64,000 nt of DNA from Kiritimatiellia bacterium (GTDB taxonomy: Bacteria > Verrucomicrobiota > Kiritimatiellia > JAAZAB01), in NCBI GenBank assembly GCA_041653875.1, contig JBAZEM010000006.1, forward strand, positions 46,585 through 110,584, written 5' to 3'. The notes under the pieces were generated by a model. That model searched no databases. It was not told the DNA's origin and worked only from the letters and a program-made list of their open reading frames with translations. Positions 2,217 to 42,772 of this stretch are shown piece by piece. The position numbers were made by a program, and so were the translations under genes. How positions within the stretch are numbered: position 1 is the stretch's first letter; every line of letters starts with the position of its first letter.

Positions 2217-2533
2217 GCAAAACGGCGTTTACAAAGAGGCGTGGACGTGAATGCAATGGAGAAGAACGGCGCCACGCGTCCATCACGCTTGACGATATCC
2301 GTGAGAATCGGGGGAGCGCTGGCCGCTGTTGTTATAGCGCCAGACTCGACTGCCTGGGCAAGAACGGCGCATGATGCGCGATGGATGTGACGAGTGGCGT
2401 TTCTATTCATGCCGCACCTCCGGATGATATGGTTTGAATTTCGTAATCGTCAAAACAAGTTAAGGCCATAAAAAGGGACTCCGGTCTTTGAGGTCGGAAT
2501 CCCTCTTTATGAAGCTGACAGGAATGGCTATTG

Positions 2534-4276
2534 CTACTTCACCGGGATGCCATCCGAAGCGCCAAAGCCGCCCTCGAGAACGCTGTGGCTCCCCATCAGG
2601 AAGATGCTCCAATCACCGTTATGGAACACGGCCAGGTCGGATTTGCCGTCGCCATCATAGTCCCCTGAAAGCGGGATGCCACCCGGAGCGCCAAAGCCGC
2701 CCTCGAGAACGCTGCCACTGCCCACCAGGAAGATGTTCCAATACCCGTTGCGGAACACGGCCAGGTCGGACTTGCTGTCGCCATCATAATCGCCAGACAC
2801 CGGGATGCCATCCGGAGCGCCAAAGCCGCCCTCGAGAGCGCTGTGGCTACCCATCAGGAAGATGCTCCAATCACCGTTATGGAACACGGCCAGGTCGGAC
2901 TTGCCGTCACCGTCATAGTCGCCTGATACCGGGATGCCATTCGGAGCGCCAAAGCCGCCCTCGAGAATGCTGTGGCTACCCATCAGGAAGATGCTCCAAT
3001 CACCGTTATGGAACACGGCCAGATCGGATTTGCCGTCGCCATCATAGTCACCTGATACCGGGATGCCATTCGGAGCGCCAAAGCCGCCCTCGAGAACGCT
3101 GTGGCTACCCATCAGGAAGATGCTCCAATCACCGTTATGGAACACGGCCAGGTCGGACTTGCCGTCACCATCATAGTCGCCTGATACCGGGATGCTATTC
3201 GGAGCGCCAAAGCCGCCCTCGAGAACGCTGTGGCTACCCATCAGGAAGATGTTCCAATACCCGTTGCGGAACACGGCCAGATCGGATTTGCCGTCGCCGT
3301 CGTAATCATTAATGGGCTGTTTTTCCGCCTGGCTGGGGACAACGGTGAATATACCCTCGGACGAACTTACGTAGATCTTGCCGTCACGAATCCGGACCGT
3401 TTCCATCCGCTCGTCCGAACGGGCCAGCACCGCATATCCCGCGTAGTTGCCATTGGTCACAAACAGACGCTGCAACTCGCTCGCATCGGTGAACGACGTC
3501 GCGGTAATTACCAGGCGTCCCTTATTGTCCACCACCATGCCACTCGCGCCATCTCCCGCGGATAGCGTTGCCCACGCATGGCCGACCGGGCTCAGCGGGG
3601 CGCCCGCGGGATTGGCAATGGCAGCGGAAACTTCCGCGGCGCTCCAGCGGTAAACTGTCGGATTGCCCGAAGAGACGTAGCCTTCCGCGTAGAAGAGATT
3701 GCTGGACGCGTCGAAAGCGATTGGACCGCTTGCGGCGCCGATGGCGCCGAGATTCACCAGCGGGTTGCTCACCAAGTCACCATTCGCGTTCAGGGCGCTG
3801 TAATAGATCGCGGAGTTATATCCCCCCGCGGCCCAGAAATCGGTCCCGTCACGCGTCTCGAGCCCATATATGTCGCTCAGAATTCCTATGTTCGCCGGTG
3901 CGGACGGGTGGGTCGGATCATATCGGTAGTAGTCGCAGGTATAACGGGTGTATGTTCCGCCGTCGTTGAAGTAGATGCGGCCGCCGATTGCGGTCACCCG
4001 ACTGCCGGAGAACGCGTTCGCGTCCGTGTACAGGAGCGATGCATTGACGCCGTTGTAACGGTAAACGGAGATCCCTAAACCATAGTCCGGACGTCCGGTC
4101 GAGTAGTACAGGTTCGAATCTTCGTCCCAGTCGAACGCCACCAACGTCTCTCCCGCATGCGGATTCGCGTAGAACGTTTGCGCCACGTAATTGCTGCTTC
4201 CGATGAACGCAGCGAACGCATGTTCGCCAAGCGCCGCCAGGCACACGCCAATAAACAACCTCAACATTAATTTCAT
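2534..4276 (-). CDS. Secreted FG-GAP/VCBS-type repeat protein (about 7 tandem 42-aa repeats, DYDGDGKSDLAVF...)
   Basis: Signal peptide MKLMLRLFIGVCLAALGEHAFA follows an AAGGAG RBS. The C-terminal half consists of near-identical 42-aa FG-GAP-like repeats encoded by 126-bp DNA tandem repeats. Confidence 0.7.
   Translation of the reverse strand: MKLMLRLFIGVCLAALGEHAFAAFIGSSNYVAQTFYANPHAGETLVAFDWDEDSNLYYSTGRPDYGLGISVYRYNGVNASLLYTDANAFSGSRVTAIGGRIYFNDGGTYTRYTCDYYRYDPTHPSAPANIGILSDIYGLETRDGTDFWAAGGYNSAIYYSALNANGDLVSNPLVNLGAIGAASGPIAFDASSNLFYAEGYVSSGNPTVYRWSAAEVSAAIANPAGAPLSPVGHAWATLSAGDGASGMVVDNKGRLVITATSFTDASELQRLFVTNGNYAGYAVLARSDERMETVRIRDGKIYVSSSEGIFTVVPSQAEKQPINDYDGDGKSDLAVFRNGYWNIFLMGSHSVLEGGFGAPNSIPVSGDYDGDGKSDLAVFHNGDWSIFLMGSHSVLEGGFGAPNGIPVSGDYDGDGKSDLAVFHNGDWSIFLMGSHSILEGGFGAPNGIPVSGDYDGDGKSDLAVFHNGDWSIFLMGSHSALEGGFGAPDGIPVSGDYDGDSKSDLAVFRNGYWNIFLVGSGSVLEGGFGAPGGIPLSGDYDGDGKSDLAVFHNGDWSIFLMGSHSVLEGGFGASDGIPVK
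2545..3300. repeat. 126-bp tandem repeat x about 6-7 (coding; FG-GAP repeats)
   Basis: Recurrence of ccatccgaagcgccaaagccgccctcgagaacgctgtggct... every 126 bp with few substitutions. Confidence 0.8.
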
Positions 4277-4482
4277 TTTCATCGCTCCTTTATCGCAGTT
4301 TTTTCCTTGTTCGCGCCTCATTCCAGTCGGGACAAAGGCGTCGTTGTGTTCACTTCTATGGTTTGCATGCTTCCTGTTTATTGGTCTATGTCACAGCGCC
4401 TCCTTTTCGGTCCAGATCGAATGGCGCGAGGTAATATGGCCATCCTATCCCCGCGCGCGTGCCACGAGAAACTTGAGTCCGG

Positions 4483-6741
4483 TCACTGGCTTTCCACCTT
4501 CTTCATCCATATCGCTGTCACGGCATCGAGATCGAAGCCCGACTTGTTGTTACTCCTTGTCGCGGCTCCCGTCTCCTCGTTGTGATAGACGAGATCACCA
4601 TCGTTATCGATGAGCCAGCGGCTCCCTGTGGACTGGATGCGTACGTAACGGATCCACTCCAGTCCCACCGCCGAGATGTCGAAACTGTCGCCGCCCGACA
4701 CGGCCGGGTCGGTGGGATCCGGGGAATAGCCATCGCTCATGACGGGATTGACGCCGGCAAAACCCGAATTGTAGCAGTAGGGATGACGGAGGTTGAGAGC
4801 GCCGGTGTCGGGATCGTAACGCGGTGAGAAGTCGATCTTGAATTGCCGCCAGTTTATCCCGTCCTGGCTGACAGACACCACGGCCGGCTCCATAAAACGG
4901 GTTTCGGGATCGGGGACTCCGGCCGCGTCGCAAACATAAAAGACGTTCTCGAAGACCGTAAAATCGGCGCCCGGCCCGTCCCACACCACGTTGTCCACAA
5001 ACTCCAGCGTGATCGTGCCGCCGTAGGGGGCTGATGCGCCGCCGTCATCATTGATGGCGGCCCCCAGCGAGACAACATCCGTTGAGCCCCACACGAGACC
5101 CTTCCCGCGGGGAGCGCCGAGGACAATCTGCGGGAGTTCAGCGGACCTGAATGCGTTCGGATGAAGCAGATTCTTGCTCACGACTCTGTCTGCGAACGGT
5201 TCTGTTTCAGGCGGCAGCTTTGCGAAGATCTTAGGCGACGCCGCGGACGTTGCCATCGTTCCGTTACTTTCGAGGAATGCGGCGTAGTAGTGGTTGCCTT
5301 CGCCCACATCGCCGTCAAGATACGAGGTTTCGGGTCCGCAGTATACCGTTGAGCCATCTGACGGCGTCAACGGGGTTCCTGTTGAACTCCGTACAATCCG
5401 GACGCTGAGATCCCCGCTCATCGCTGTCAGAACCCAGCTCAGGGCGACACTGTTGCGGCTCAGCAACGCCTCGAATTTGGATATTGAGGCGGAGAGACGG
5501 GGCAAGACCTCCAGCGCTAATTGCACGTTATCCAGTTGGCCCTCTGCGTCCTGCACCCCGACGCTGATTTCGTAAGTGCCGGATTCTGAGGGCGTTCCCG
5601 AGCAGAGACCAGCTGCGGAGAACTCGATACCAGGTGGGAGAGAACCGCTGATGCCCCAGACGTAGGGCTCCACGCCGCCGGTTGCCTGGAAGGCGAGTTC
5701 GAACGGCTCCGACTCGCGAATGGACGATTGCGGAATATCCAGTATGCTCAGCTCGGTCCTGCAGTGGAGCACGAGTTCCTTCGTAACGTGAAGCTGCGCA
5801 TCGCTCAACCAGAAGACCAGCGGGATATCAACCTTCGGGGAAGAAGCATCGATCTTCCCTTGAAGTTTCCCTGTTTGAGAATCGAGAGCCAGCGCCCCGA
5901 TCTCCTCGAGGTTCCCTGCCGCGCTCCACGCATACGGTGGAACCCCGCCGGCCGCTTGAAGCTGGAAGACGTAATCTTCGCCGGGAAAAGCGGCGGGCAG
6001 ACTCGCGGTCACGATCTCGAGACTTTGCTCCGGCTGAAACGTCAGGACGTATTCCGCCACGTCCTTTGCGCCCCGCCGGTCGGTTACCTGAAGGAAGAAA
6101 TCCACCGTAGTTGGTTCGGTCGGAATTCCGCTGAGTTTGCCGGACTGGCTGTCGAACGAGAGCGACCCCGGCAGTTTGCCGCCCACGACGCTCCACAGGT
6201 AAGGCTGAAAGCCGCTCGTGGCCAGGAATTGGACATCATAGAGTTCGCCAACCCGGCCCGGTGGAAGCGATCCGGTTGTGATATAAACCAGGTTTGTGCC
6301 GCCGCCGGTCGTTGGTATCCATTTCCCTTGCCGATTTATGACGCCGAACTTTTCCCGTATGAGTCTCTCCTTGAGCGCAGCGATATCTTCGGAGGTGACT
6401 TCTTCGTCGGTTAGGTCTTCGGCTTCCTCGTTTTCGTTCAGATTGGCGGCCGCGCCGAAAAGCTCCGGAGCAGAGTTTGTGCTTCCGGGTTTGTCCATAT
6501 GATTGCTATCCGCAAGCCTTTCGCTGTCGCTTATGGCGGCGGCAGATGTCCTGGAGCCATGAGGATAGACGCGCCCGCCGCGGTTGTGGTTACGGGCGCC
6601 CCCTCTCTTGGCGGCAAGGGACCCCGCCTCACGGTTGGACTTTGCTGCGAAAAAACAGACAAGTCCAATTGAACAGGCGATGACCACAAATACTCCCAGA
6701 TAAACCCTTGCCAGGCGTTTTATAAACAGGCCAATCTGCAT
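4483..6741 (-). CDS. Membrane-anchored cell-surface protein with 3 putative Ig (cadherin/dystroglycan-like) domains, an FN3-like region and a C-terminal about 250-aa domain of unknown function
   Basis: Start chosen at ATG 6741 (MQIGLFIKRLARVYLGVFVVIACSIGLVCFF signal anchor). Repeated motifs YLWSVVGGKLPGSLSFDSQSGKLSG, YAWSAAGNLEEIGALALDSQTGKLQG and YVWGISGSLPPGIEFSAAGLCSG. Sits downstream of a cobalamin riboswitch. Confidence 0.65.
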   Translation of the reverse strand: MQIGLFIKRLARVYLGVFVVIACSIGLVCFFAAKSNREAGSLAAKRGGARNHNRGGRVYPHGSRTSAAAISDSERLADSNHMDKPGSTNSAPELFGAAANLNENEEAEDLTDEEVTSEDIAALKERLIREKFGVINRQGKWIPTTGGGTNLVYITTGSLPPGRVGELYDVQFLATSGFQPYLWSVVGGKLPGSLSFDSQSGKLSGIPTEPTTVDFFLQVTDRRGAKDVAEYVLTFQPEQSLEIVTASLPAAFPGEDYVFQLQAAGGVPPYAWSAAGNLEEIGALALDSQTGKLQGKIDASSPKVDIPLVFWLSDAQLHVTKELVLHCRTELSILDIPQSSIRESEPFELAFQATGGVEPYVWGISGSLPPGIEFSAAGLCSGTPSESGTYEISVGVQDAEGQLDNVQLALEVLPRLSASISKFEALLSRNSVALSWVLTAMSGDLSVRIVRSSTGTPLTPSDGSTVYCGPETSYLDGDVGEGNHYYAAFLESNGTMATSAASPKIFAKLPPETEPFADRVVSKNLLHPNAFRSAELPQIVLGAPRGKGLVWGSTDVVSLGAAINDDGGASAPYGGTITLEFVDNVVWDGPGADFTVFENVFYVCDAAGVPDPETRFMEPAVVSVSQDGINWRQFKIDFSPRYDPDTGALNLRHPYCYNSGFAGVNPVMSDGYSPDPTDPAVSGGDSFDISAVGLEWIRYVRIQSTGSRWLIDNDGDLVYHNEETGAATRSNNKSGFDLDAVTAIWMKKVESQ

Positions 6742-6812: not shown

Positions 6813-7062
6813 TAAAAAAGCCTCCAGACTCCCGCCAAAAGAGTCTGAAGGCTTTGAATACAGCACGATCCCTCATTCTCCTTTCAAGCGAAGGAGCCAC
6901 AACGAGCATGAAAAGAAACGTCTCCTGACTTCCGGCTTCAAGCCTACTCCTTCACCTTCCCGTTTGCCTTGCGGCACCCGGTGGTCATTGAAGTTTCGTA
7001 GCCGGTCACAGTGGCGCGACCGTATCCGATTCTCACGGATTTCCGTACTCTCTTCACAAACA
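6813..7062 (-). ncRNA. Cobalamin (B12) riboswitch with intrinsic-terminator expression platform
   Basis: The minus strand reads ...GGAAATCCGTGAGAATCGGATACGGTCGCGCCACTGTGACCGGCTACGAAAC...GGGTGCC...AAACGGGAAGGTGAAGG...CAGGAGACG. This matches remembered RF00174 core blocks (GGUGAGAAUCC, GCC-CUGU-A, GGGAAGG). It is followed by the hairpin GCCTTCAGACTC..GAGTCTGGAGGC plus TTTTTT (6813-6853). A paralogous element lies at 19882-20150. Confidence 0.6.
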
Positions 7063-7379
7063 AACTTTTAATTCCAAAGAACTGACAAGACTAATAACAC
7101 AACCATGCAAGCTGTCAATAAGATTTATAAAGCAATTTTTCAAAAGCGTTGTCTATATTGCCGAGCCATGCTTGTTGACGATATTAAAAAAACACCTTGG
7201 CCAGCTTTAGAATACCCTGGCTCCAATACGCGCAGGGCCAGAATTACCGGGGTCGTTCCGGTAAAGACACGATCCGCTTGCCGTGGCCGGCTTCGTCAAG
7301 CACGGCCTGAAAATCCGAGCGCGGTGTTCCGAATTGCTCTGCGCCGACATTGAACGTGTCGTCCTGAATCCCTGGCGGG

Positions 7380-14862: not shown

Positions 14863-14865
14863 TTT

Positions 14866-15245
14866 TTAGTCCTTGATACGTAGGAATTTCCCGCCATAGG
14901 CGGATCCGCCTCCGGCAGACAAAACATAGCGGTTCTAACGAACCGCAACTACACCAAAGCGGTGTAGTTGCCGTTCGATAGAACGGCAAAGTCGCGGCCT
15001 TTGGCCGCCTAACTCGATGTTAAGGAAATTCAATCTGATGTAGAGCCGGTTTTATACCGGCTATCCTATGCCGAAGATAGCCGACGTAAAGTCGGCTCTA
15101 CATGAAAAAGCCGCCCCGCTGCGGGGCCTAACTTGATGTATAGGAAATCCAAACCCGCCGGGTCAGGGGACCCGGCCTACAATACTGTAGGCCCGGTGCC
15201 CTCACCGGGCGTTATGAAAAAGCTGCCCCGCTGCGGGGCCTAACT
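14866..15245. repeat. BIME-like mosaic repeat array (hairpin modules separated by conserved linker CTAACTYGATGTAnAGGAAATYCAA)
   Basis: Three linker copies at about 15012, 15135 and 15238. Hairpin modules such as GTAGAGCCGG..CCGGCTCTAC and GCCCCGCTGCGGGGC recur at 32292-32470, 48335-48545 (inverted), 62745-63360 and partly at 30205-30310. Confidence 0.75.
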
Positions 15246-16047
15246 TGTTGTTTCTGCGGTTGGCTTCCTGCGCCGCCTCGGAAATAGCCATGACATAAGG
15301 TTTGCGGGAAACAGGGTTTTTCTCGACCACCACAACCGTTTTGTAAACCTCCTCAATAATCCTGTAATCAAGCACCTCCTCCGGGGCGCCGAATTTGTAA
15401 ATGGCGCCCTTGTCGAACAGCGCCAGGCGATGGCAGTATTCGCCGGCCAGGTTCAAATCGTGCAGCACCATAATCACCGTAAGAGCGAAGTTGATGTTCA
15501 ACCTTCTGATGAGATCGAGGATGCCCATCTGGTGGGTGATGTCGAGATAGGTGGTCGGTTCGTCCAGGAGCAACAACTTCGGTTCCTGGGCCAGCGCGCG
15601 CGCAATCAGGGCTAACTGGCGTTCTCCGCCGCTGATCCGGCTCATGAGCTGGTCCTTGATCCTGAGCGCATCGGTTAACACCATGGCGTTGCAGGCGATC
15701 TGCGCGTCGTTCTTCGTTTCGAGGAAGCGGAAGCGGTCGTAATAGGGTGTCCGGCCCAGGAGCACAAATTCCTCCACGGTCATAAAACCGGATTCGGCGC
15801 TTTGCGAAACAACCGCGATTTTGCGCGCCAGTTCCCGGATTTTCATTCTGCGGATATCTTCGCCCTCCAGACGAATGACGCCGCCCGCCGGTTTCAGCGA
15901 CCGCGTGATGGCCCTCAGCAGGGTTGTTTTCCCGGAGCCGTTCGGGCCGATGATGCCGACGATTTCGCCGGCCGGAACGCGCAGATTGATATTACGGATG
16001 GCGAATCCGGAGTCATAGCCGCAGGTCAGATCGCTTATATCGAGCAT
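15202..16047 (-). CDS. btuD: Iron-siderophore/cobalamin ABC transporter ATP-binding protein (BtuD/FepC-like)
   Basis: Walker A GPNGSGKTTLL, LSGGERQ, LLLLDEPT. Start set at MLDISDL. The C-terminal tail runs into the repeat array. Confidence 0.7.
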   Translation of the reverse strand: MLDISDLTCGYDSGFAIRNINLRVPAGEIVGIIGPNGSGKTTLLRAITRSLKPAGGVIRLEGEDIRRMKIRELARKIAVVSQSAESGFMTVEEFVLLGRTPYYDRFRFLETKNDAQIACNAMVLTDALRIKDQLMSRISGGERQLALIARALAQEPKLLLLDEPTTYLDITHQMGILDLIRRLNINFALTVIMVLHDLNLAGEYCHRLALFDKGAIYKFGAPEEVLDYRIIEEVYKTVVVVEKNPVSRKPYVMAISEAAQEANRRNNKLGPAAGQLFHNAR

Positions 16048-17057
16048 CGGATTTGGCCCTCCCGCCGCCGGCACAATACATAGACAAAAATTATCCCGCC
16101 CAGCAATCCCGTGACGACGCCGACGGGCAATTCCGTCGGGCTGACAACCGTTCGCGCCAATGTGTCGCAGGCGACCAGGAAAACGCCCCCGCAAAGCCAG
16201 GCGGCGGGCAGCAAAATACGGTGGTCGCCGCCCACGAAAAGGCGCATGAAATGCGGAACCACCAGGCCCACGAAGCCGATGATCCCGGCCACAGAAACGC
16301 TCAATCCGGTCATAATTGACGCCAGGATAAAGAGCAGGCGTTTGGCGGTTTCGATGTTGACGCCGAGATGGAAGGCCTCCTCCTCGCCGAGCGCGAGGGC
16401 GTTAAGCTCCAGGCAAAAGAAATAAGAAACCCCCAGGGCGACAACGGAAACAATCACGGCGATTCTTACCAGCAGAGGGTTGGGCTGTTCCAGGGAGCCC
16501 ATGGCCCAAAAGATGATGCCGTGCAAATCCTCCACCTTCGAAATCGCCATGATAAGCGTCATCAACGAAGAGCAGATGAAGCTGATCATTATGCCGATCA
16601 ACAGCAGATTTCGGATGTTAAGGCCGCCTTTGCCGATGCTTAAAAAATACACCGCGAAAATGGCGGCGGCCGCGCCAATCGAGCCGGCCACCGGCAAAGA
16701 CCAGACGCCGCAACTCCGGCCCAGCCTGAAGATGATAGCCAGGCATACGCCCAGCGCCGCGCCGCCGGAAATTCCCATGGTATAAGGCTCAACCAGCGGA
16801 TTGCGGAATAATCCCTGCAAAATGACTCCGGCCAGGCTCAACGCGCCGCCGACCGCAATGCCAAGTAAAATGCGCGGAAGACGAACATCATAGATGATGG
16901 TCCGTTCCATAGTGTCGCCGCTGCGCATTAGCGCCGACAAAAGTCTGGCCGGCGAAATATCGGCCGAACCCAGGCACAGGGAAATGATCCCCACGCCCGC
17001 CAGCAAGCCGCCCAGAATCAGAAGCGCGGCCATCCAATGTGTAAATCTGTTTTTCAA
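16035..17057 (-). CDS. btuC: FecCD-family ABC permease (BtuC-like)
   Basis: About 9 TM helices. FecCD family signature region. Confidence 0.75.
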   Translation of the reverse strand: MKNRFTHWMAALLILGGLLAGVGIISLCLGSADISPARLLSALMRSGDTMERTIIYDVRLPRILLGIAVGGALSLAGVILQGLFRNPLVEPYTMGISGGAALGVCLAIIFRLGRSCGVWSLPVAGSIGAAAAIFAVYFLSIGKGGLNIRNLLLIGIMISFICSSLMTLIMAISKVEDLHGIIFWAMGSLEQPNPLLVRIAVIVSVVALGVSYFFCLELNALALGEEEAFHLGVNIETAKRLLFILASIMTGLSVSVAGIIGFVGLVVPHFMRLFVGGDHRILLPAAWLCGGVFLVACDTLARTVVSPTELPVGVVTGLLGGIIFVYVLCRRREGQIRCSI

Positions 17058-19018
17058 AATGCCGCCTTCACGCCGCCTATCACGCTTGCGCCGGGCATGG
17101 GGTAGCCGTCAAGCAACTGATATTGCTTGTTCAGGATGTTGTCGCCGCGCGCAAATATTTCCACACCCTTGAAAATAGTTTGCGACGCATAAGCGCCCAG
17201 GGTTAAAAAGCCGCCCAATTCCTTGGCATTGGCCCGGTCGGTGTAAACCGAGCCGGTATAGTCGGCGTTCACGTTCAATTTCAGCCCCCATTCGCTCTGA
17301 TAGCCCAGGCGGCCGCCCACTTTATTCTTCGGCCGGTAGGTCAGGGTCTCGCCGTCGTACGCGCCGCTGGTGTCCCGCGCATCAAGCAAGGTGTAGTTCA
17401 GCTCGCCGGAGATTTCTTCGGTGAGCTGCATGCTTAATTCGGTTTCCAACCCCCGCAAGACGGCCTTATTGACATTTTGCGCCGTATATATCCCCTTGCC
17501 GTCGTTATCGTACCAGGCGATCAGGTTTTTCATGCGGCTTTGAAAGAGGGATACTTCCAGCATGCTTTTCGCCCCGAGCTGCTGTTGAATGCCGGCGTCG
17601 CAGCCGATCGATTCCTCGGGCTTCAAATCGGGATTACCCATGGAATAATCGTCCCGCCAATAGAGTTCGTTAACCGTGGGCGCCCTGAATCCGCGGCCGA
17701 TGGAGGCCTTCAAACCGGTGCCTTCGATAATCTTGTAGAGGCCGCTGATCTTCGGGCTGAGTTCAGCGCCCCATTTCGACTGAACGTCGCAGCGCAGGCC
17801 GGGGGTCACGACCAGTTCCTCCAGCAGCGACACCTCGTCCTGCAGGAAACCCGCGCCGGTGAAGAGATCGCGGCCGCCGCCGATGCGCGAGACATCGTTG
17901 GCATCCCTGATATTCACATAGTCGTTTTCCAGGTAAATACCTCCCAGGAGCAGTTGGCGCGCGCCCACCGGCAAAGTCTGCTGAATGTCCAAGCCTGCTT
18001 TCCGGTTCCGGCTGGTGTCGTCGATAAAACTGTCGGGGTCTTTATATTCCTGCCAGTTCTGATTTAAAAAAGCCTTGCTGGTGAGAACCGTGTTTGTTTC
18101 AAATTCGTATTTATGCGTGAGATCGAACCAGTATTGCCGGTCATATTGCTTGGCATTGGGGGTTTCCCAGCTGGTCGAGCCGGGGACGCCTTTGTTCTGC
18201 CGTGAAAAGCCGGAGTTTAGCGTCAGCCGCGATTCCCGGGTCAGGTCATAATCCAGTTTCCCGGCAACATTGTAGCCGTCGCAGGCGCTGTTTTCGCGCC
18301 AGCCGTCGGACGCATTCTGGCTGGCCGTGATCAGGTAGCCGGCGTCGCCTATTTTCGCCCCGTTATTCAATCGGAGAATGCGCGTGTTTTTCGTTCCATA
18401 CGACGCCGCTAAATCGGTTGTAAATTTCTCCGGCGGATCCCGGGTGACGATATTGACCACCCCGGCCATGGCGCCGGCGCCGTAAAGAACCGAGCCGGGT
18501 CCCCGGATCACCTCGATGCGCTCGATCTGGTCAACGGGATACAGGGAAAGATCGGCCATGCCCACCGAGGCAACGTTGACCGGCCGGCCGTCAACCATGA
18601 CCAATACCTGCTGTCCGGAGGAACCACGCAGAGTTATCTTGCTTTCCGCGCCCATGGCGCCGTAGCTGTTGACGCGCGCGTCGGCGACTTCTTCCAGAAC
18701 CTCGCCGACGTTTTGCGCCTGTAATTCCTCGATTCTTTCCCGCGGAACCACCGAAACGCTCACTCCCAAGTCCCGTACCGTCTGGGGAATGCGCGTGGCC
18801 GAAACAACCACGGTATCGGCGTCGACAACCGCCTGGGTGGCAACCGGCGCGGGCTGGGTGGCAGCCGCCACTTGGGTGACAACCGCCACTTGGGCGGAGG
18901 ACTGCTGCGCGGCGTTGGATTCCGCCGCCAAGATATTGGTTGCCATTCCCGCCGCGAGCATGAAATTCATAAGCGTTGTCACCGCCAGCGCGGTTTTGTT
19001 GTCCATGGCTCTATTCAT
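17054..19018 (-). CDS. btuB: TonB-dependent receptor (BtuB-like)
   Basis: TonB box DTVVVSATR, plug domain motifs, beta-barrel. Confidence 0.7.
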   Translation of the reverse strand: MNRAMDNKTALAVTTLMNFMLAAGMATNILAAESNAAQQSSAQVAVVTQVAAATQPAPVATQAVVDADTVVVSATRIPQTVRDLGVSVSVVPRERIEELQAQNVGEVLEEVADARVNSYGAMGAESKITLRGSSGQQVLVMVDGRPVNVASVGMADLSLYPVDQIERIEVIRGPGSVLYGAGAMAGVVNIVTRDPPEKFTTDLAASYGTKNTRILRLNNGAKIGDAGYLITASQNASDGWRENSACDGYNVAGKLDYDLTRESRLTLNSGFSRQNKGVPGSTSWETPNAKQYDRQYWFDLTHKYEFETNTVLTSKAFLNQNWQEYKDPDSFIDDTSRNRKAGLDIQQTLPVGARQLLLGGIYLENDYVNIRDANDVSRIGGGRDLFTGAGFLQDEVSLLEELVVTPGLRCDVQSKWGAELSPKISGLYKIIEGTGLKASIGRGFRAPTVNELYWRDDYSMGNPDLKPEESIGCDAGIQQQLGAKSMLEVSLFQSRMKNLIAWYDNDGKGIYTAQNVNKAVLRGLETELSMQLTEEISGELNYTLLDARDTSGAYDGETLTYRPKNKVGGRLGYQSEWGLKLNVNADYTGSVYTDRANAKELGGFLTLGAYASQTIFKGVEIFARGDNILNKQYQLLDGYPMPGASVIGGVKAAF

Positions 19019-19881
19019 TCTTTGTTTGCTCCTTGTATGATTTCCGGATGGATTCGCTTTAGAAGTTCAGGCAGACCGTATAAAATCAGCCGTGGCGAGG
19101 GGATGGTGATGACTTGGGGGCCTATGTCGTCATAGACGCGGCCGGTTTTGATGGCGGAGATTTTCTCCCATCCTTTTCTTTGCTTTAAGGCCTCTTTGCC
19201 GAAATTTCTGCCCATGTAGGGCAGAATGATCACTTCGGGGTCGCTGTTGATGACAAATTCCGACGATATGCGCGGGAAGGGCTGGGCGATGGCGCCGGCA
19301 ATGTTTTGCCCGCCGGCGGCTTCGATCATTTCGTGGATAAACGACCCCTTGCCGCAAGTGAACAACGGGTCATAGCCGGTTTCCATGTAGACTCGCGGGC
19401 GCGAAGGCAGCGCTGCCGTCAAGCGCCTGGTTGTTGCGACGGTCGCGCGCATGCGTTTGAGCAACGCTGCCGTCCGCGCGGGTTCTTTGAGGATATCCCC
19501 GATCTGCCTGGTTTTGGCAAAAATTTCCGCGATGCCCTGCGTCTCATCCAGAACCACGACGCGCAGACCCAAGGCGGATAATTTTTCGGCGGCGGATTGT
19601 TGCCCCGCAAAACCGGTGGCCAGGATAAGATCGGGCTTGAGCGCGACGATTCTTTCAATGTTGGGTTTGACCCATAAACCGATCCGTTCCGCGCGCCGGA
19701 CTTCTTCCAGGTAATCGGAAGATGTCGTCACGCCGACGATCCGGTCCTGCAATCCCAGTTCGATCAGAATTTCATCGTAGCTGGGAGCAAGGCTCACAAT
19801 TCGTTTGGGCGCGGCGTCTTCGGCAAGGATGCGCGTGCCAATAAAGATCGAAAGACATCCGGCAACGATAAGCTTGGTCAT
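19015..19881 (-). CDS. btuF: Periplasmic binding protein of cobalamin/siderophore ABC transporter (BtuF-like)
   Basis: Signal peptide. PBP type-2 motifs (IVSLAPSYDEILIELG, VKPNIERIVALKPDLIL). The start ATG 19881 directly follows the riboswitch terminator T-tract. Confidence 0.7.
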   Translation of the reverse strand: MTKLIVAGCLSIFIGTRILAEDAAPKRIVSLAPSYDEILIELGLQDRIVGVTTSSDYLEEVRRAERIGLWVKPNIERIVALKPDLILATGFAGQQSAAEKLSALGLRVVVLDETQGIAEIFAKTRQIGDILKEPARTAALLKRMRATVATTRRLTAALPSRPRVYMETGYDPLFTCGKGSFIHEMIEAAGGQNIAGAIAQPFPRISSEFVINSDPEVIILPYMGRNFGKEALKQRKGWEKISAIKTGRVYDDIGPQVITIPSPRLILYGLPELLKRIHPEIIQGANKE

Positions 19882-20150
19882 AAAAAAACCTCCGATACGC
19901 TCGTAGGCGGATATCGAAGGTTTGCGATTGCGGAACCTCATCCTCTCCACCTGCGAGAGAGCGAATCCGGCCTGGCCGGATTCCGATGAGCGTGCAAAGC
20001 AACGTCTTCTGACTTCCGGGTGCTATCCTACTTTCCCCGCCTTCTCCCAACCTGTGCTGGGATGGCTTATGGGATTTCGTCCCCGGTTACAGCGGCGCAA
20101 CCGCGTCCGATTTTCACGGACTTCCGTACGCCTTCCACGCTTGTAAAAAC
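19882..20150 (-). ncRNA. Cobalamin (B12) riboswitch controlling btuF-TBDR-btuCD
   Basis: The minus strand reads GTGAAAATCGGACGCGGTTGCGCCGCTGTAACCGGGGACGAAATCCC...GCCATCCCAGCACAGGTTGGGAGAAGGCGGGG...CAGAAGACG. This is homologous to the element at 6813-7062. It ends in a hairpin plus TTTTTTT abutting the btuF ATG. The context is the classic B12-importer regulon. Confidence 0.7.
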
Positions 20151-21427: not shown

Positions 21428-21592
21428 ATAAGCAAGAGGCGTTCTTTGTTCCTCGTTCTTGGTTCTTCGTCTTTTGGTCGGATTGAAAGCCATTTTTTAT
21501 TGAGCCGATAGCGGGACTGAAGTGCATGTGTTCGTAACGAAGAACGAAGAACGAAGAACCAAGAACAATTTAATTCGAACCAATAAATCCTT

Positions 21593-22843: not shown

Positions 22844-22925
22844 CTGACACCAGTCCTGAAAGGACGAAGGGCGGAAAAACGAAGAACTAAGAACTAAGAA
22901 CGAAGAACCAAGAACGCATTCCCCC

Positions 22926-24410
22926 ATGCCTTTGCACATTTACAATACCCTGACGCGATGCGTGGAAGAGTTCATTCCGCTTCAGGCCCCGCAGGTGCGG
23001 CTTTATACCTGCGGGCCGACGGTCTATGACTTTGCCCATATCGGCAATTTCCGCGCCTATGTGTTCGAGGACCTGCTCCGGCGCACTCTGCGCTTGCGGG
23101 GGTTTCAGGTGACTCAGGTCATGAACCTTACTGACGTGGATGACAAAACCATCCGTGGCGCGCAAGCGGCTAAGGCGGCCTTGCGCGATTATACGCAAAA
23201 GTACAAAGATGCATTTTTTGAGGACCTGCGCGTGTTGGCGGTCGAGCCGGCCGAGCACTATCCGGCCGCCACGGCGCATATCCCCGAAATGATTGCCTTG
23301 ATCGAGACCCTTTTCCAAAAGGGCTATGCCTATCGCTCCGAAGATGGATCCGTGTATTTCAGCATCGCCAAATTCAAGGATTACGGGAAACTCGCGCGCC
23401 TGGATCTTGCCGGCCTCAAGCCGGGCGCGCGTATTGCGCAGGACGAATATCAGAAGGAAAATGCGGCCGATTTTGCTCTGTGGAAAGCCTGGCAAAGCGA
23501 AGACGGCGATGTGGTTTGGGATTCGCCCTGGGGGCGCGGCCGGCCAGGTTGGCACATCGAGTGCTCGGCCATGAGCATGAAATACCTGGGGGCCGGTTTC
23601 GATCTGCACACCGGCGGCGTGGACAATATTTTCCCGCACCACGAGGACGAAATTGCCCAGAGCGAGGCCGCCACCGGCCGGCCTTTCGTCAAGTACTGGA
23701 TGCATTGCGCCCATCTGGTCGTGGATGGACGTAAGATGTCCAAGTCGCTGGGTAATTTTTTCACGCTTCGGGATATAATTGGGCGCGGCTACTCCGGACG
23801 TGAAATCCGCTACGCGCTCATGGCGGTCCATTACCGGCAGGCGCTCAATTTTACCTTTGAGGCGCTCGATGCCGCTCGCGGCGCCCTCGCCCGCCTGGAT
23901 GAGTTCGCGGAACGAATACGATCGCAAAGCGATCGGAAGTCAGAAGTCAGAAGTCAGAAGTCAGAAATCAGCAGTCAGCAGTCGGCAACTAATGCACAAG
24001 CTGATATCGAATCGGCAATCGGCAATCGGCAATCGGAAATCGGAAATTGGACTGCTCCTCACCTGGCGGCTTTCACGCGTGCCCTGGATGACGACCTCAA
24101 TATTTCGCTGGCCCTGGCCGCGCTCTTCGATTTTGTTCATGCCGGCAACAAGCGCTTGGCTGAAGGCGCCTTGAGTCCGGTGGAAGCCGTCCAGGCGCTT
24201 GACGCGCTGGCCCATATCGACTGTGTGCTGGGTGTGCGCGGCGCGGATACCTTGGCCCCGCCGGCGCACGTTGTGCGCCTGGCCCAGGCGCGACTGGAAG
24301 CCCGCCGAAGCAAAAATTGGGCCGAGGCCGACCGCCTGCGCTGTGAGGTCGAGACCCAAGGCTGGATCATTCAGGATGCGGTCGACGGGTTCAAGGTGAA
24401 GCGCAAATGA
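22926..24410 (+). CDS. cysS: Cysteine--tRNA ligase with in-frame low-complexity insertion
   Basis: HIGH motif (AHIGNFRAY), KMSKS (KMSKSLGN). An insertion of about 45 aa is encoded by (CAGAAGT)n and (AATCGGC)n microsatellites at 23930-24050. Confidence 0.85.
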   Translation: MPLHIYNTLTRCVEEFIPLQAPQVRLYTCGPTVYDFAHIGNFRAYVFEDLLRRTLRLRGFQVTQVMNLTDVDDKTIRGAQAAKAALRDYTQKYKDAFFEDLRVLAVEPAEHYPAATAHIPEMIALIETLFQKGYAYRSEDGSVYFSIAKFKDYGKLARLDLAGLKPGARIAQDEYQKENAADFALWKAWQSEDGDVVWDSPWGRGRPGWHIECSAMSMKYLGAGFDLHTGGVDNIFPHHEDEIAQSEAATGRPFVKYWMHCAHLVVDGRKMSKSLGNFFTLRDIIGRGYSGREIRYALMAVHYRQALNFTFEALDAARGALARLDEFAERIRSQSDRKSEVRSQKSEISSQQSATNAQADIESAIGNRQSEIGNWTAPHLAAFTRALDDDLNISLALAALFDFVHAGNKRLAEGALSPVEAVQALDALAHIDCVLGVRGADTLAPPAHVVRLAQARLEARRSKNWAEADRLRCEVETQGWIIQDAVDGFKVKRK

Positions 24411-29388: not shown

Positions 29389-29686
29389 GGCATTGCGCCA
29401 ATAAAATTCCAAATTCCAAATACCAAGTTTCAAATTTCAAGGAAACGCATCAATTACTTATGTAGTCCAGACGTGAAATTGCCGCCGGTTTACACCGGCG
29501 GCTACGTAGCCGCGCCTGTGAAGGCGTGGCTCTTCCAAGACCATGTCCAGTCTATTTCGGGAATGTTAATAAGGCAAAGGAAGGAAACCAAGGTTGATTT
29601 TGTCTTTATTGGGATTTTACTATTCCTTGTAATTTGGAACTTGGAATTTCTTGGATTGCGGGCGCAGCCCGCATAGGAGGAGGGCT

Positions 29687-30204: not shown

Positions 30205-30310
30205 CCATAACTGTAGCCGCGAGACGATAGGCGCGCGTTTCCGTAGCCGCGCCGATGAGGGCGTGGATTCCTTCGGCGGCCTAATTTGACGGATAGGAAT
30301 TTCAACTTAA
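30205..30310. repeat. Partial copy of BIME-like mosaic repeat (GTAGCCGCGAGACGA module plus linker CTAATTTGACGGATAGGAATTTCAA)
   Basis: Shares the GTAGCCGCGAGACGAC module and the linker with 62745-63360. Confidence 0.5.
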
Positions 30311-30325: not shown

Positions 30326-30889
30326 ATGAATCTATTGCATGGTCTGATTAAGAGTGTGCTTTCGGTGGGACTGCTGATCCTGGGCGTTTTGTTGCTGACC
30401 AATCTCGTTGTCGCCTTTCAGACGCCCTTGGGGGTGTTCCTGATCAACGACAAGCTGGGGCAGTTCCTGGTGGGGATTTCCGCCGTTTTCCTCGTGCTCC
30501 TGTACTGGCTGACGGGCGTTCCGATTAAGGACGAGCAGTTCCTCACGTTCGAAAACGAGGGCGGGGCGGTCAGCATCAGCGTGAAGGCGATCGACGATTT
30601 TCTCGCCAAGCTGGCGGACGAATTCGCGGGTATCATCCGGCTGCGCGCCGATGTGGCCGCCTCGCGCGATGGACGCGTCGAGGTGCGCCTGGACGTGAGC
30701 GTCAGGGCCGGCACCAAGGTCCAACAGTTGTCGCAGGTTCTTCAGCAACGGGTTCGGGAAAGCATGCGCGACAATCTCGGCATTGCCGAAATTCATTCCG
30801 TCAAGGTGAACGTGAGCTCCATTGTCGCCGCCGAGAAACCGGCCGCCGGCCATGCCGCCGACCGCGCCGACTGGCAGTCTGACGCCTGA
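30326..30889 (+). CDS. Alkaline shock response membrane anchor protein AmaP-like
   Basis: N-terminal TM helices plus a DUF322-like C-terminus. Paired with the Asp23 gene. Confidence 0.6.
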   Translation: MNLLHGLIKSVLSVGLLILGVLLLTNLVVAFQTPLGVFLINDKLGQFLVGISAVFLVLLYWLTGVPIKDEQFLTFENEGGAVSISVKAIDDFLAKLADEFAGIIRLRADVAASRDGRVEVRLDVSVRAGTKVQQLSQVLQQRVRESMRDNLGIAEIHSVKVNVSSIVAAEKPAAGHAADRADWQSDA

Positions 30890-30992
30890 CGCCTGACGAC
30901 GGACGACGGACGACGGACGACGGACGACGGACGACGGACGACGGACGACGGACGACGGACGACGGACGACGGACGACGGACGACGGACGACA
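30890..30992. repeat. Heptamer tandem array (GACGACG)n, about 13 copies
   Basis: ctgacgcctgacgcctgacgacggacgacggacgacgg... directly after the amaP stop. Related GACGACAGACGAC motifs occur at 22770-22850, 26040-26075, 30140-30190 and 34810-34860. Confidence 0.85.
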
Positions 30993-32291: not shown

Positions 32292-32470
32292 GTCGGTTCG
32301 ATTGCTGGTTTAATGTGTAGGAATTTTCCGCCGGAGGCGGTCCCGCCTGCGGTGGACAAAACCAAGCGGTTCTATCGAACCGCAACTACACCGGCTCGTT
32401 GTAGCGCCGTTCGAGAGAACGGCAAAGTCGCGGCCTTTGGCCGCCTAACTTGATGTACAGGAATTCAATA
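32292..32470. repeat. BIME-like mosaic repeat copy
   Basis: TGTAGGAATTTTCCGCC plus GCGGTTCTATCGAACCGCAACTACACC hairpin plus GTCGCGGCCTTTGGCCGCCTAACTTGATGTACAGGAATTCAA. Confidence 0.75.
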
Positions 32471-32577: not shown

Positions 32578-35190
32578 ATGAAAGAAAAATATCCGTTCGA
32601 TGAAATCGAGCCGAAGTGGCAGGCCTATTGGCGTGAGCGTGGCTTGTTCAAGGCGGACCTGGACAAGGCCGCTAAAAAATATTATTGCCTGATGATGTTC
32701 CCTTATCCCTCGGCGGCCTTGCACGTTGGGCATGGGCGCAATTACATCATCGGCGACGCCGTGGCGCGTTACAAGAAAATGCGCGGATTCAACGTGTTGA
32801 CGCCGATGGGCTGGGATGCCTTCGGCCTGCCGGCCGAGAACGCCGCCATCAAAACCGGGACCCATCCCCGGATCACGACCCTGGCCAATATCGCCACCAT
32901 GAAGCGGCAGTTGAACGCCTGGGGCTGTTGTTACGACTGGGACCGCGAGGTGACCGCCTGCCTGCCGGACTATTACCGCTGGACGCAATGGCTGTTCCTG
33001 CAGTTTTTCAAGCGCGGCCTGGCCTATAAGGCGTTTGCGCCGGTCAACTGGTGTCCATCCTGCGTGGCCGTGCTGGCCAACGAGCAGGTGATCGACGGCA
33101 AATGCTGGCGGTGCGATTCGCCGGTGCAGGAGAAACGCCTCGAACAGTGGTTTTTCAGGATCACCGACTATGCCCAGCGCCTCTTGGACGATCTGGACAA
33201 GCTGGCCGGCTGGCCGGAACGGGTCAAGTTGATGCAAAAGAACTGGATCGGACGCAGTGAAGGCGCGCGGATCGAGTTCCCGTTGGCGCCGCGCCGCGAC
33301 GGCGGGAAGGATTCCATCTCCGCCGTGGCCTGTTTCACCACGCGGGTGGACACGATCTTCGGTTGCACCTATATGGTGCTGGCCCCGGAATATCCGGAGT
33401 TGCCGGAACTGGTGAAGGGGTTGCCGGAAGAAGCGGCGGTCGCGCAGTTCGCCGCCCAGGCCGTCAAGGTTGCCGCCGTTGACCGCGCCGGCAACACCCT
33501 CGATAAAAACGGCGTGTTCACGGGGCGGTTCGTGGTCAATCCCTATACCGGCGAGAAAATTCCGTTGTGGGTCGGCGATTACGTCATTATGAGTTACGGC
33601 GCCGGCGCCGTGATGGCCGTGCCGGCGCACGACACGCGCGATTGGGCCTTCGCCAAAAAATACGGTTTACCCATCAAGCTTTCCATCCAGAACGCGGAGC
33701 GGACGCTTGTCATTCCCGATCCAATCGGGAATCCAGTTTCAGAAAGCTCGGATCTGGATTCCCGCTTTCGCGGGAATGACACCGCGGGTAAACCGAAATT
33801 CATGACGGATGCTTACGTCGAGGACGGCGTCACGGCAAATTCCGGCCAATTCAGCGGGTTGCCAAGCGGCCAGGCGCGGGCGCGGATGACGGCTTATGCC
33901 GAGGGGCAAAAGTTTGGGGGCGCTTGCGTGACCTACCGCCTGCGCGACTGGCTGATCAGCCGCCAGCGTTATTGGGGCGCGCCGATCCCGGTCGTTTATT
34001 GCAAGACCTGCGGCATTGTGGCGGTGCCGGAAAAGGATTTGCCTGTGCTCCTGCCGGACACCGTGGAGTTCAAGCCCACGGGCGAATCGCCGCTGAAGCG
34101 CGACGCGAACTTCATGAACACGACCTGCCCGAAGTGCGGCGCGAGCGCCCAGCGCGAAAGCGACACCATGGATACGTTCGTCGATTCGAGCTGGTATTAT
34201 CTGCGCTATCTTTCCGCGCGCGACGACCGGCAGGCCATCCGGACCGAGGTGTGCAACCGGTGGCTGCCGGTGGACCAGTATATCGGCGGCATCGAGCACG
34301 CCATCCTGCATCTCATGTACGCGCGGTTTTTCACCAAGGCGCTCTTCGACATGGGTCTGGTGGGCTTCGACGAGCCCTTCGCGAACCTGTTCACGCAGGG
34401 CATGATCTGCAAGCGCAGCGAAAAGGACGGCCAGCTTTACAAGATGTCCAAGTCCAAGGGCAATGTGGTGAGCCCGGACGAACTGATCCGCGAATACGGC
34501 GCCGACACTGTGCGGCTCTATACGCTCTTTATCGGGCCGCCGGAAAAGGATGCCGAGTGGAACGACCAGGGCATCGAGGGCGCCTTCCGGTTTCTCAAGC
34601 GCCTCTGGCGCTTCGTATATGAGCGGCATGACGTTCTGCAAAAGGCCGCAACCTTCGCGCCGGAATTGGCGTCCATGAGCGTTCCGGAGCGCGATCTCTA
34701 TCGCAAGGCCCATGAAACCATCCGGGTCGTTACCGGCGGACTGGATGGCGCCTTCCATTTCAATACGGCCATTGCCCAGATCATGGAGCTGATGAACGAG
34801 GTGGAGCGTTTCTGCCCTCAGTCGTCTGTCGTCTGTCCTCCGTCGTCTGTCCTCCGCCACGCCGTTGAAACGATCGTTCTCCTGCTTTCGCCCCTGGCCC
34901 CGCATATTGCCGAGGAGTTATGGGTGGAGTTGGGGCATGCGCCCGGCGTCTTGCAGGCCGCCTGGCCCGAGGCCGATCCCGCCGCACTGGCGCGCGACTG
35001 CGTGGAAATCGCGCTCCAACTCAACGGCAAGTTTCGCGGCACGATGATGGCGCCGGCCGGGGCCGACCGTAAAAGCCTGGAGGACACGGCGCTGGAGCAG
35101 CCGCAGATTGCCAAGGCGGTCAAGCGCGAGCAGGTGGTCAAGATGGTGGTGGTCCCGGACAAGCTGGTCAATATTGTGTTTAAGGCATGA
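32578..35190 (+). CDS. leuS: Leucine--tRNA ligase
   Basis: Class I aaRS with HVGH and KMSKS motifs, CP1 editing domain, zinc knuckle CxxC. An in-frame hairpin-rich insertion lies at 33711-33800. Confidence 0.9.
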
Positions 35191-35301
35191 GATAAGTCGC
35201 CAAAGGCGGCAACTGTTTCATGTAGCCGCGGGCGTGAGCCAGTGGCCGCCGGAAGAATCCACGCCCTCACGGGCGCGGCTACCCGGATTGAGATTCCGAT
35301 C

Positions 35302-36944: not shown

Positions 36945-37010
36945 CGGGTAACATGCCCGCCCTCCCTTGGGTTGCGGGCGCTTAGCCCGCCTTAAGGCCT
37001 TTTCTTTGTT
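36945..37010 (+). terminator. Terminator-associated inverted-repeat element (GCGGGC-loop-GCCCGC plus T-tract)
   Basis: Follows the rhaA stop. A near-identical inverted copy lies at 62640-62700 and a related core at 44950-44990. Confidence 0.55.
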
Positions 37011-39563: not shown

Positions 39564-39663
39564 AAGGATCTCCGATCTATTAAGTATGGGAGTATGGGAG
39601 TATCGGAGTAAAGCATTGGCTCTGCACTCCTATACGCCGTTACACTCATACGCCGTTACGCCC

Positions 39664-42659: not shown

Positions 42660-42772
42660 GGCAAAAGTCTCCTCTTTGCAAAAGTATGGGAGTATGGGCG
42701 TATGGGGGTGAGGGTGTCCCGCATAAATTTTTCACGCCCCTACACCCATACTCCTACACACCCATACGCTTC

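Follow-up and report, generated by a model that had tools for sequence, protein, structure and literature searches.

Arrays of small hairpin-rich units with IS91-like ends in a Kiritimatiellia bacterium

A 64-kb stretch of contig JBAZEM010000006.1 from an uncultured Kiritimatiellia bacterium (hereafter the window, meaning the whole stretch of DNA that was analysed) contains five clear arrays and two degenerate copies of a repeat in which hairpin-rich units are joined by a near-constant linker of about 28 nt. The original prediction, made from the letters of the sequence alone, had described this repeat as a mosaic of hairpins at five intergenic loci and had likened it to the bacterial interspersed mosaic elements (BIMEs) of E. 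coli. We consider it most probable that each unit is a non-autonomous miniature of an insertion sequence (IS) of the IS91 family, the rolling-circle elements moved by HUH-Y2 transposases, that has no transposase gene of its own, and that the linker is the joint between the terminating end (terIS) of one unit and the origin end (oriIS) of the next.

Anatomy of the units and their arrays

The linker (GGCCTAACTYGATGTANAGGAAATYCAA) was matched with three or fewer mismatches at four positions in the window (15006, 15125, 63080 and 63217), compared to an expectation of zero from 100 dinucleotide-preserving shuffles, which bears out the prediction of a constant joint. Looser scans added copies at 14873, 30281, 32445, 48446 (minus strand) and 62807. 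Successive linkers are spaced 119, 112, 137 and 111 nt apart. The mosaic itself was likewise confirmed: the hairpins quoted in the prediction are present, and self-BLAST analysis, which had been proposed as a check, linked all five loci through common modules at 80–94% identity, with units A2 and A3 being collinear with units E2 and E3 over 275 nt (80% identity). Two degenerate copies, at 35186–35300 and 2436–2470 (both minus strand), lie beyond the loci originally listed. The window contains at least 13 units of 110–280 nt, in agreement with the claimed high density of modular intergenic repeats. The arrays consist of one to three units and are scattered. All units of an array have the same orientation and the linker copies whose spacing is given above are all direct. 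The units and their associated features are as follows (coordinates and strand are those of the window; z-scores compare the fold with shuffled sequences).

14872–14875, plus strand: CTTG directly 5′ of array A, the presumed IS91-family insertion target.
14876–15016, plus strand: unit A1, 141 nt, type M1 (z = −6.65); oriIS-like head AT-ACGTAGGAATTTCC, two small CCGCC hairpins, a three-hairpin palindrome (GCGGTTC.../AACTACACC.../GCCGTTC...), then AAAGTC, the terIS hairpin GCGGCCTTTGGCCGC and the tail CTAA-CTCG.
15017–15135, plus strand: unit A2, 119 nt, type M2 (z = −5.65); head AT-GTTAAGGAAATTCAA, composite palindrome GTAGAGCCGG...CCGGCTCTAC, terIS hairpin GCCCCGCTGCGGGGC, tail CTAA-CTTG.
15136–15247, plus strand: unit A3, 112 nt, type M3, the last unit of array A, from sequence and fold; head AT-GTATAGGAAATCCAA, palindrome GGGTCAGGGGACCC/GGCCTAC..GTAGGCC/CCGGTGCCCTCACCGG, terIS hairpin, tail CTAA-CTTG.
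30205–30288, plus strand: partial unit B, with a GTAGCCGCG-type palindrome and the terIS-like tail CTAA-TTTG, its left side lacking an oriIS head.
30289–30305, plus strand: solo remnant of an oriIS head, AC-GGATAGGAATTTCAA, directly upstream of the ribosome binding site of the gene at 30326–30889.
32313–32452, plus strand: unit C1, 140 nt, type M1, 84% identical to A1; preceded by the flank TTTA and ending in CTAA-CTTG.
32453–32469, plus strand: remnant of an oriIS head, AT-GTACAGGAATTCAAT, following C1.
48337–48462, minus strand: unit D2, 126 nt, type M1b, inverted relative to the other arrays; hairpin GCCGAAGGC and CCAA-CTCG at the array end.
48463–48545, minus strand: unit D1, a 5′-truncated M2 with a terIS hairpin and the degenerate tail TTAA-TTTA; a 50-nt stretch is 98% complementary to 63150–63199.
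62806–62809, plus strand: CTTG directly 5′ of array E.
62810–63090, plus strand: unit E1, 281 nt, composite, from sequence and inverted repeat; head AT-CTACAGGAATTTTCC, CCGCC-type hairpins, a GTAGCCGCG module with a long palindrome (arms 62897–62932 and 63012–63047), terIS hairpin GCGGCCTTCGGCCGC, tail CTAC-CTTG.
63091–63227, plus strand: unit E2, 137 nt, type M2, with a CCGCC-hairpin module nested in its first loop; tail CTAA-CTCG.
63228–63338, plus strand: unit E3, 111 nt, type M3; tail CTAA-CTCG.
63339–63356, plus strand: remnant of an oriIS head, AT-CTAATAGGAAATTGTA, closing array E.
35186–35300, minus strand: degenerate GTAGCCGCG-type unit just downstream of leuS, with head and tail eroded.
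2436–2470, minus strand: possible degenerate solo junction, GGCCTTAA-CTTG-TT-TTGACGATTACGAAATTCAA, behind a terminator-like hairpin.

A common layout emerges from the plus-strand arrays A, B, C and E: CTTG in the flanking DNA, the unpaired oriIS head AT-GTATAGGAAATTCAA of about 19 nt, a composite palindrome, an A-rich spacer leading to AAAGTC, the terIS hairpin, and CTAA-CT(C/T)G. When folded as single strands, the units have an unpaired 5′ tail of 18–19 nt, a structured core, the A-rich spacer, a GC hairpin of 6–8 bp and an unpaired 3′ tail of 10 nt (19 and 10 nt for A2). This analysis, also proposed with the prediction, gave z-scores of −5.1 to −6.7 for single units. The inner palindromes are composite, differ between unit types, and span 50–150 nt, compared to 20–40 nt for the imperfect palindromes of repetitive extragenic palindrome elements, which have a conserved 5′ GTAG head; some start with GTAG (M2, the GTAGCCGCG type and the unit of contig L033), M1 and M3 not among them.

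The gene context of the arrays varies. The suggestion that copies sit at convergent or operon boundaries holds in part, with locus E being found between convergent genes, but locus C lies between divergent genes and locus B inside an operon. The suggestion that copies can extend open reading frames (ORFs) holds at array A, where unit A3 overlaps the 3′ end of an ABC ATPase gene (ORF 15202–16194, minus strand) and contains about its last 15 codons. An Rfam scan of the window, another check that had been put forward, found only two cobalamin riboswitches above the gathering score; the arrays gave sub-threshold noise of at most 24 bits against thresholds of 50–100. Searches for the repeat in viral contigs found no match, and those in a phage collection only chance hits; a search of papers for the literal linker retrieved only unrelated primers.

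The junctions between units provide information on what the linker is. All 29 distinct junctions are head-to-tail, and any unit type may follow any other. Sequence variants of the linker to the left of GAT^G (the caret here and below marks an element boundary) go with the left unit and those to the right go with the right unit. The linker is therefore the joint of two independent elements and not a unit of its own, an apparent element boundary whose meaning the original prediction missed. The small terIS hairpin varies in sequence among copies and lineages while its pairing is kept (94% paired); three of its six pairs are changed on both sides, a covariation score reached by none of 500 shuffles.

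Array boundaries coincide with the same point. Arrays start after TCCTTG^AT, AACTTG^AT and TTTA^AT in the window, and after AACTTG^AT and TTTG^TT in relatives (flanks TCCTTGAT, AACTTGAT and TTTAAT in the former, AACTTGAT and TTTGTT in the latter), so that the left flank is CTTG at A, E and locus L029, TTTA at C, and TTTG at locus L034. At eight independent loci, arrays stop exactly after CTAACTYGAT. As read from the flanks only, no flanking sequence is duplicated apart from the terminal CT(C/T)G of the unit or the shared CTTG(AT) motif. Nor are there terminal inverted repeats (TIRs) between head and tail beyond a chance similarity of about 6 nt (GTTAGG-like). The head AT-GTATAGGAAATTCAA and the tail hairpin-CTAACTYG are otherwise unrelated, and each unit has two different ends.

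Homology of the unit ends to IS91-family insertion sequences

A generic form of the linker, searched against plasmid records, matched about 1000 enterobacterial plasmid records. Four matches were inspected, and all four are located at the termini of annotated IS91-family transposase genes. In three independent copies of IS91, the end downstream of tnpA reads flank-CTTG^AC-GTATAGGAAATTGAAAAACC (also with a GTATAGG start), and the other end reads GCAGCC-GCCA-GGCTGC-CGTG-GTTC^. One of these copies interrupts orfB of IS2, the target continuing across the element, which places the insertion directly 3′ of CTTG. The corresponding sequence in the window and its relatives is CTTG^AT-GTATAGGAAATTCAAA, identical to IS91 at 18 of 20 positions with the register anchored at the junction; by our own calculation, the probability of such a match by chance at a fixed register is roughly 1e-9. 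The oriIS of ISEc37 reads CTTG^AT CGATAGGAATTAAAACC, and an alignment of the ends from Kiritimatiellia, Brocadiaceae, Scalindua, IS91 and ISEc37 contains 12 invariant columns. The same oriIS motif is found in an environmental element that ends in ...GAACTTTCCTATAT^ (entered in the comparison of ends as TTTCCTATAT^) and that encodes a transposase with only 27% identity to that of ISEc37. Among the environmental IS91-family transposases P0209, P0210, P0211 and P0239, related oriIS motifs occur in two elements, none of the type found in the Planctomycetes-Verrucomicrobia-Chlamydiae (PVC) group.

The other end of the units corresponds to terIS. The window sequence AAAGTC-GCGGCCTTTGGCCGC-CTAA-CTCG or -CTTG is to be compared with GCAGCCGCCAGGCTGC-CGTG-GTTC in IS91 and GCAGCCGTCAGGCTGC-CTA-CTCG in ISEc37. 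In plasmid NZ_CP050863.1, the terIS of ISEc37 abuts the oriIS of a copy of IS91, GCAGCCgtcaGGCTGC-CTA-CTCG^AC-GTATAGGAAATTG, and this arrangement has the layout of the window linker.

These features agree with what has been published on the family. IS91-family elements have distinct oriIS and terIS ends and make no target duplication; they insert at CTTG in the case of IS91 and at GTTC in the case of IS801 and IS1294; the terIS cleavage site (CTCG in IS91) adjoins a single subterminal palindrome; and the active form is a single-stranded circle of the bottom strand (PMC13181058). The left end carries a conserved GC-rich stem-loop of 17 nt (PMC3189936). The units end in CTCG or CTTG, the same tetranucleotides as the published sites. 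Like IS91, IS801, IS1294, ISEc37 and the ISCR elements, they have an oriIS end (..AATTTCCTATAC on the tnpA-sense strand) next to a CTTG target, a terIS made up of a GC-rich subterminal stem-loop followed by a tetranucleotide of the CTCG, CTTG or GTTC type, and neither inverted terminal repeats nor target duplication, and tandem elements form terIS–oriIS junctions. In four family features of the ends and the target (the oriIS terminal sequence, the terIS palindrome with its tetranucleotide, a CTTG/GTTC-type insertion site, and unlike ends without TIRs), the units agree with the IS91 family.

In other respects the units are unlike known members. They have no transposase gene and measure 110–280 nt, compared to about 1.5–1.8 kb for full elements; they are very dense and form multi-unit head-to-tail arrays; their inner part consists of unit-specific palindromes; and they reside in Kiritimatiellia and anammox Planctomycetes, not in Proteobacteria. 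Short derivatives are nonetheless known to be mobile. A mini-IS91 built in the laboratory from 89 bp of terIS and 82 bp of oriIS with an adjacent CTTG, and thus short and with both ends like the units, is sufficient for transposition when TnpA is supplied in trans (PMC13181058). Miniatures of IS801, 229–679 nt in length, also transpose with TnpA in trans, and like the units they retain oriIS and end at a target-like tetranucleotide (PMC3189936). The IS801 miniatures differ in being few in number and in being truncations of the parent element that arise by one-ended transposition and lack the terIS stem-loop, whereas the units described here keep the terIS hairpin, contain foreign inner palindromes, and occur as many near-identical copies and in arrays.

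Mobility, mechanism and competing explanations

For comparison we used the regions syntenic with the window in two relatives, L034 and L035. The leucyl-tRNA synthetase encoded in the window (32590–35190) is identical to that of a metagenome-assembled Kiritimatiellia bacterium, and those of the relatives are 85–89% identical to it. The stretch at locus B is absent from the orthologous site in both relatives. At locus C, L035 is empty, and the unit found in L034 shares its head and tail, though not its inner palindrome, with that of the window. The relatives contain 0–1 units per 22 kb, compared to the 13 or more in the 64 kb of the window. Within 320 kb of sequence from the organism, M3-type units are found in 16 distinct contexts at 91–99% identity, and in unit E2 one module has inserted into the loop of another. 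Arrays B, C and D were also found, unchanged, in contigs from other samples.

The elements are not confined to one phylum. A scan for the exact pattern in one genome per species yielded five hits, all of them in anammox Planctomycetes of 37–43% GC (three Scalindua, one Brocadiaceae and one 'Planctomycetia AMX3'). A scan of metagenomes yielded 23 loci, most of which, at about 59% GC, stem from two samples in which the organism of the window is present; many of these loci are at contig ends, and many metagenome contigs break inside arrays. In every lineage the same frame, consisting of G-N-ATAGGAAATTCAA, about 5 nt, a palindrome, ..AAAGTC, a small GC hairpin and CTAAYTYGAT, surrounds lineage-specific palindromes; conservation across phyla resides in the linker and not in the palindromes.

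Two further observations concern this frame. A palindrome of the GTCATTCTGAG...GAAGAATC type fills it at L004 (7010–7100), at L001 (about 5480–5540; Scalindua) and at L034 (9707–9790; the Kiritimatiellia relative). The GTCATTCTGAG...GAAGAATC motif is a common repeat in many environmental genomes, and some of those repeats may be the same kind of element. In addition, an oriIS head is located directly upstream of a start codon both in the Kiritimatiellia exbB gene (window 14863–14877) and in Scalindua (L020, 68–100). The gene strand reads ...CCTA..ATCAAGGACTAAAAAATG in the former and ...CCTATATATTTAATTAAGGACTAAAATATG in the latter, and in both phyla an AAGGA ribosome binding site and start codon follow the edge of the element.

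A mechanism for the spread of the units can be proposed by analogy with the established behaviour of the IS91 family, from which we infer the enzyme, the strand chemistry and any current activity. An HUH-Y2 transposase encoded elsewhere would act in trans, nicking 3′ of CTTG at oriIS. The nicked strand would be peeled off or copied, with termination at the CT(C/T)G behind the terIS hairpin, and the freed strand would be circularised and then inserted 3′ of another CTTG without target duplication. Because the CTTG or CTCG at its own end would recreate the target, each unit could receive the next copy directly behind it, and arrays of one orientation with a constant joint would arise in this way. 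Read-through of termination, known in the IS91 family as one-ended transposition, would co-mobilise neighbouring units; such missed termination would fit the recurrence of the M2–M3 pair, which accounts for 8 of the 29 junctions. The gene for the cognate transposase would be bounded upstream by hairpin-CTAACTYG and downstream by GAATTTCCTATAC^AT-CAAG.

Several observations weigh against the assignment of the units to the IS91 family or against this mechanism. With IS91 and ISEc37 TnpA as queries, tblastn found nothing below E = 0.4 in about 410 kb from the organism, its relatives and the Scalindua loci, and neither the Y2_Tnp (PF04986) nor the Zn_Tnp_IS91 (PF14319) domain is present among the genes of the window. 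Taken one by one, the short matches at the ends have marginal BLAST E-values, 0.02 with the generic linker and 4 with the copy of the window itself; the case rests on the anchored register and on the location of the matches at IS termini. The palindromes inside the units do not resemble the ones in the oriIS of IS91. At every outer end of an array, AT, AA or TT comes after the terminal CT(C/T)G, which makes it ambiguous whether the nick falls after CTTG or after CTTGAT. The bodiless oriIS heads at 30289, 32453 and 63339 would need secondary deletions or abortive events. Finally, two contigs from other samples (L006, 5959–6150, and L007, 1–656) are 99.9–100% identical to the window (14863–15252) up to array A and then diverge, L006 containing unit A1 only, followed by hprK in place of the ABC operon, and L007 containing two extra units; these differences could reflect repeat-mediated rearrangement or assembly chimeras.

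The likeness to BIMEs on which the original prediction drew is real in appearance. As in the repetitive extragenic palindrome (REP)/BIME systems of E. coli and Pseudomonas, abundant intergenic hairpin mosaics have recurring joints, several inner palindromes resemble REPs in having GTAG at the start and CTAC at the end, and an HUH enzyme probably acts on folded single strands, such hairpinned strands being substrates of both the Y1 and the Y2 enzymes. One could therefore regard the inner palindromes as REPs or REPINs moved by a REP-associated tyrosine transposase (RAYT, a Y1 HUH enzyme) and the linker as an extra-palindromic motif of the BIME type. We consider this highly improbable, since the units are arranged head-to-tail without alternation, have two different ends, and are conserved across phyla in the linker and not in the palindrome, and since the linker is homologous to the ends of IS91. 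The search for a RAYT that had been recommended was negative, with tblastn using E. coli RayT finding no match in 409 kb; given the homology of the linker to the terIS–oriIS joint, RAYT is the wrong enzyme to look for, and the expected partner is an HUH-Y2 transposase of the IS91 type. The geometry of the units also fits another Y1 system, in which a Y1 TnpA moves PATE-like miniatures of the IS200/IS605 type in single-stranded form and, as in the case of ISDra2, inserts them 3′ of TTGAT. TTGAT, the target of ISDra2 (PMC2806898), is present at the flank and at the unit end, the unpaired tails of 19 nt (5′) and 10 nt (3′) equal the distances of the IS608 cleavage sites from its end hairpins (PMC3201880), and the units have neither TIRs nor target duplication. 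This ISDra2-like model was displaced by the matches to IS91 ends in plasmids and now appears improbable: the end sequences match IS91-family oriIS and terIS and none of the IS200/IS605 ends compared; the end-proximal hairpins differ (unit-specific on the left, small and GC-rich on the right), whereas IS608 TnpA binds similar ones at both ends; and covariation of guide and cleavage site is absent among 50 copies. A tblastn search of 409 kb for an IS200-like TnpA was negative, a weak test given that the query was approximate.

A function for the host would offer a different explanation of the conserved sequence. The opposite strand of each unit reads as a conserved 25 nt, a GC hairpin and a T run, and the units could be terminators, insulators or small RNAs under selection. 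Terminator-like sites at 15239–15225 and 15127–15113 (minus strand) are co-oriented with the upstream ABC operon, and array D is likewise co-oriented; the hairpin covaries, and the A-rich spacer that gives rise to the T run is absent from enterobacterial IS91. We nevertheless give this explanation very little weight. Orientation relative to genes is inconsistent, B being opposite inside an operon and the genes around C and E being divergent or convergent, which leaves a terminator role as a by-product at most. The scan for terminator-like sites yielded only three, compared to 1.4 expected, the corresponding sites of related species are without the elements, no Rfam family matches, and covariation of the hairpin is equally expected of a terIS read as single-stranded DNA. 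An array of clustered regularly interspaced short palindromic repeats (CRISPR), or another repeat-spacer system, might be suspected from a constant repeat of about 28–45 nt with a hairpin every 110–137 nt. The 'spacers' are themselves repeated palindromes shared among loci at 80–99% identity, which effectively refutes this idea; with no cas genes or domains in the window and with scattered arrays of one to three units, its probability is negligible, as the original prediction had already recognised.

Other known repeats and sites were considered and rejected. A classical MITE (a miniature transposable element with inverted repeats) of the DDE type is inconsistent with the lack of TIRs beyond about 6 nt and of target-site duplications in the flanks. 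The Brucella Bru-RS and rhizobial RIME repeats, a first guess from GC content, were dropped when leucyl-tRNA synthetase placed the organism in the Kiritimatiellia. GCCTAAC in the linker corresponds to the inverse core site of an integron attC, but the GTTRRRY partner and a cassette layout are lacking. The 28-nt length and a TGTATA centre would suggest a XerCD dif/pdif site, but the two arms do not form an inverted repeat and every site has the same orientation. No sigma-70 promoter was found in the linker (0 sites compared to 0.6 expected).

Other repeats of the window and significance of the units

The window contains additional repeats. Heptamer tandem repeats constitute a second class that is unrelated to the IS91-type units. 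They are intergenic (21536–21566, 22874–22916, 23936–23983, 24010–24047, 30895–30991 and 44988–45025) and sometimes form inverted pairs, as with the run at 29405–29440 and its inverted partner near 29610–29650. The heptamers are AACGAAG, GAAGAAC, GAAGTCA, AATCGGC, GACGACG (14 copies), AACCAAG and AAATTCC, and similar AAATTCC/AAATAAC runs are present in the Scalindua locus L002 (about 6990–7060). Inverted heptamer runs bound a 280-bp insertion (29394–29674) between the biotin carboxylase and Asp23 genes. This insertion includes a GTAGCCGCG-type piece and is absent from both relatives, in which the two genes are 3–10 bp apart. A 63-nt inverted repeat pair (36933–36995 and 62648–62710; 98% complementary, 25.6 kb apart) represents another dispersed family, with copies at the 3′ ends of rhaA and of a TPR gene, one of them just before array E. 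A 39-nt inverted pair (58451–58489 and 63444–63482) is 92% complementary, and an octamer run (GAGTATGG) occurs at two intergenic sites, 39582–39617 and 42682–42717. Two ORFs contain long in-frame tandem repeats and probably encode repeat-domain surface proteins: ORF 2534–4321 (minus strand), with 5.9 copies of a 129-nt period at 2541–3298, and the 1505-amino acid ORF 51898–56415, with 3.6 copies of a 255-nt period at 54398–55325.

The two cobalamin riboswitches (6898–7083 and 19982–20149, minus strand; 69 and 67 bits) head two operons for TonB-dependent receptors and ABC uptake, and array A and the exbB-exbD-tonB genes are located between these operons. The cumulative GC skew has its minimum at about 16000–20000, where gene orientation turns from mostly minus to mostly plus, compatible with a nearby replication origin or with simple gene-strand bias. 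The arrays are too few, and the origin too uncertain, for a replication-strand bias of the arrays to be assessed.

Eukaryotic non-autonomous Helitrons provide a parallel to the units. They are rolling-circle elements of the HUH-Y2 type in which a subterminal hairpin at the 3′ end precedes the short terminal motif CTRR by a few bases. They do not duplicate their target, and they are abundant as gene-less derivatives, sometimes in tandem end-to-end arrays. Helitrons differ in having a Rep-helicase transposase, the termini 5′ TC and 3′ CTRR, the target AT, and hosts in another domain of life. The likeness of the units to Helitrons would thus be one of mechanism only, as judged from general description.

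A literature search, which was not exhaustive, found no account of high-copy IS91-type miniatures in arrays, nor of the IS91 family in Kiritimatiellia or anammox bacteria, and neither IS91 nor any rolling-circle element is mentioned in a 2024 review of prokaryotic MITEs. It is conceivable, though on balance doubtful, that the units constitute an unrecognised class of bacterial repeats, namely IS91-type rolling-circle miniatures that are a prokaryotic counterpart of Helitrons and that occupy in PVC-group bacteria the niche held elsewhere by REPs and BIMEs. Under this tentative proposal a single, possibly domesticated Y2 transposase would maintain the units as RAYT does REPs, and units would have been co-opted as terminators or insulators between operons. 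The family would then be old and widespread rather than a local burst, because the frame is common to Kiritimatiellia and anammox Planctomycetes.

The finding has practical consequences in that the arrays break metagenome assemblies and may create chimeric joins, and in that the conserved 28-nt junction would serve as a cheap marker for such elements and for an adjoining transposase. The IS91 family is best known from Proteobacteria, in which it carries genes for resistance and virulence; the assignment of the units would extend it to miniatures of Kiritimatiellia and anammox Planctomycetes that have no genes and reach high copy numbers. The assignment would also explain in concrete terms how a genome feature resembling REPs and BIMEs can arise in a phylum that has been little studied: an element whose end recreates its own target would pile up in ordered arrays, with no host function required.

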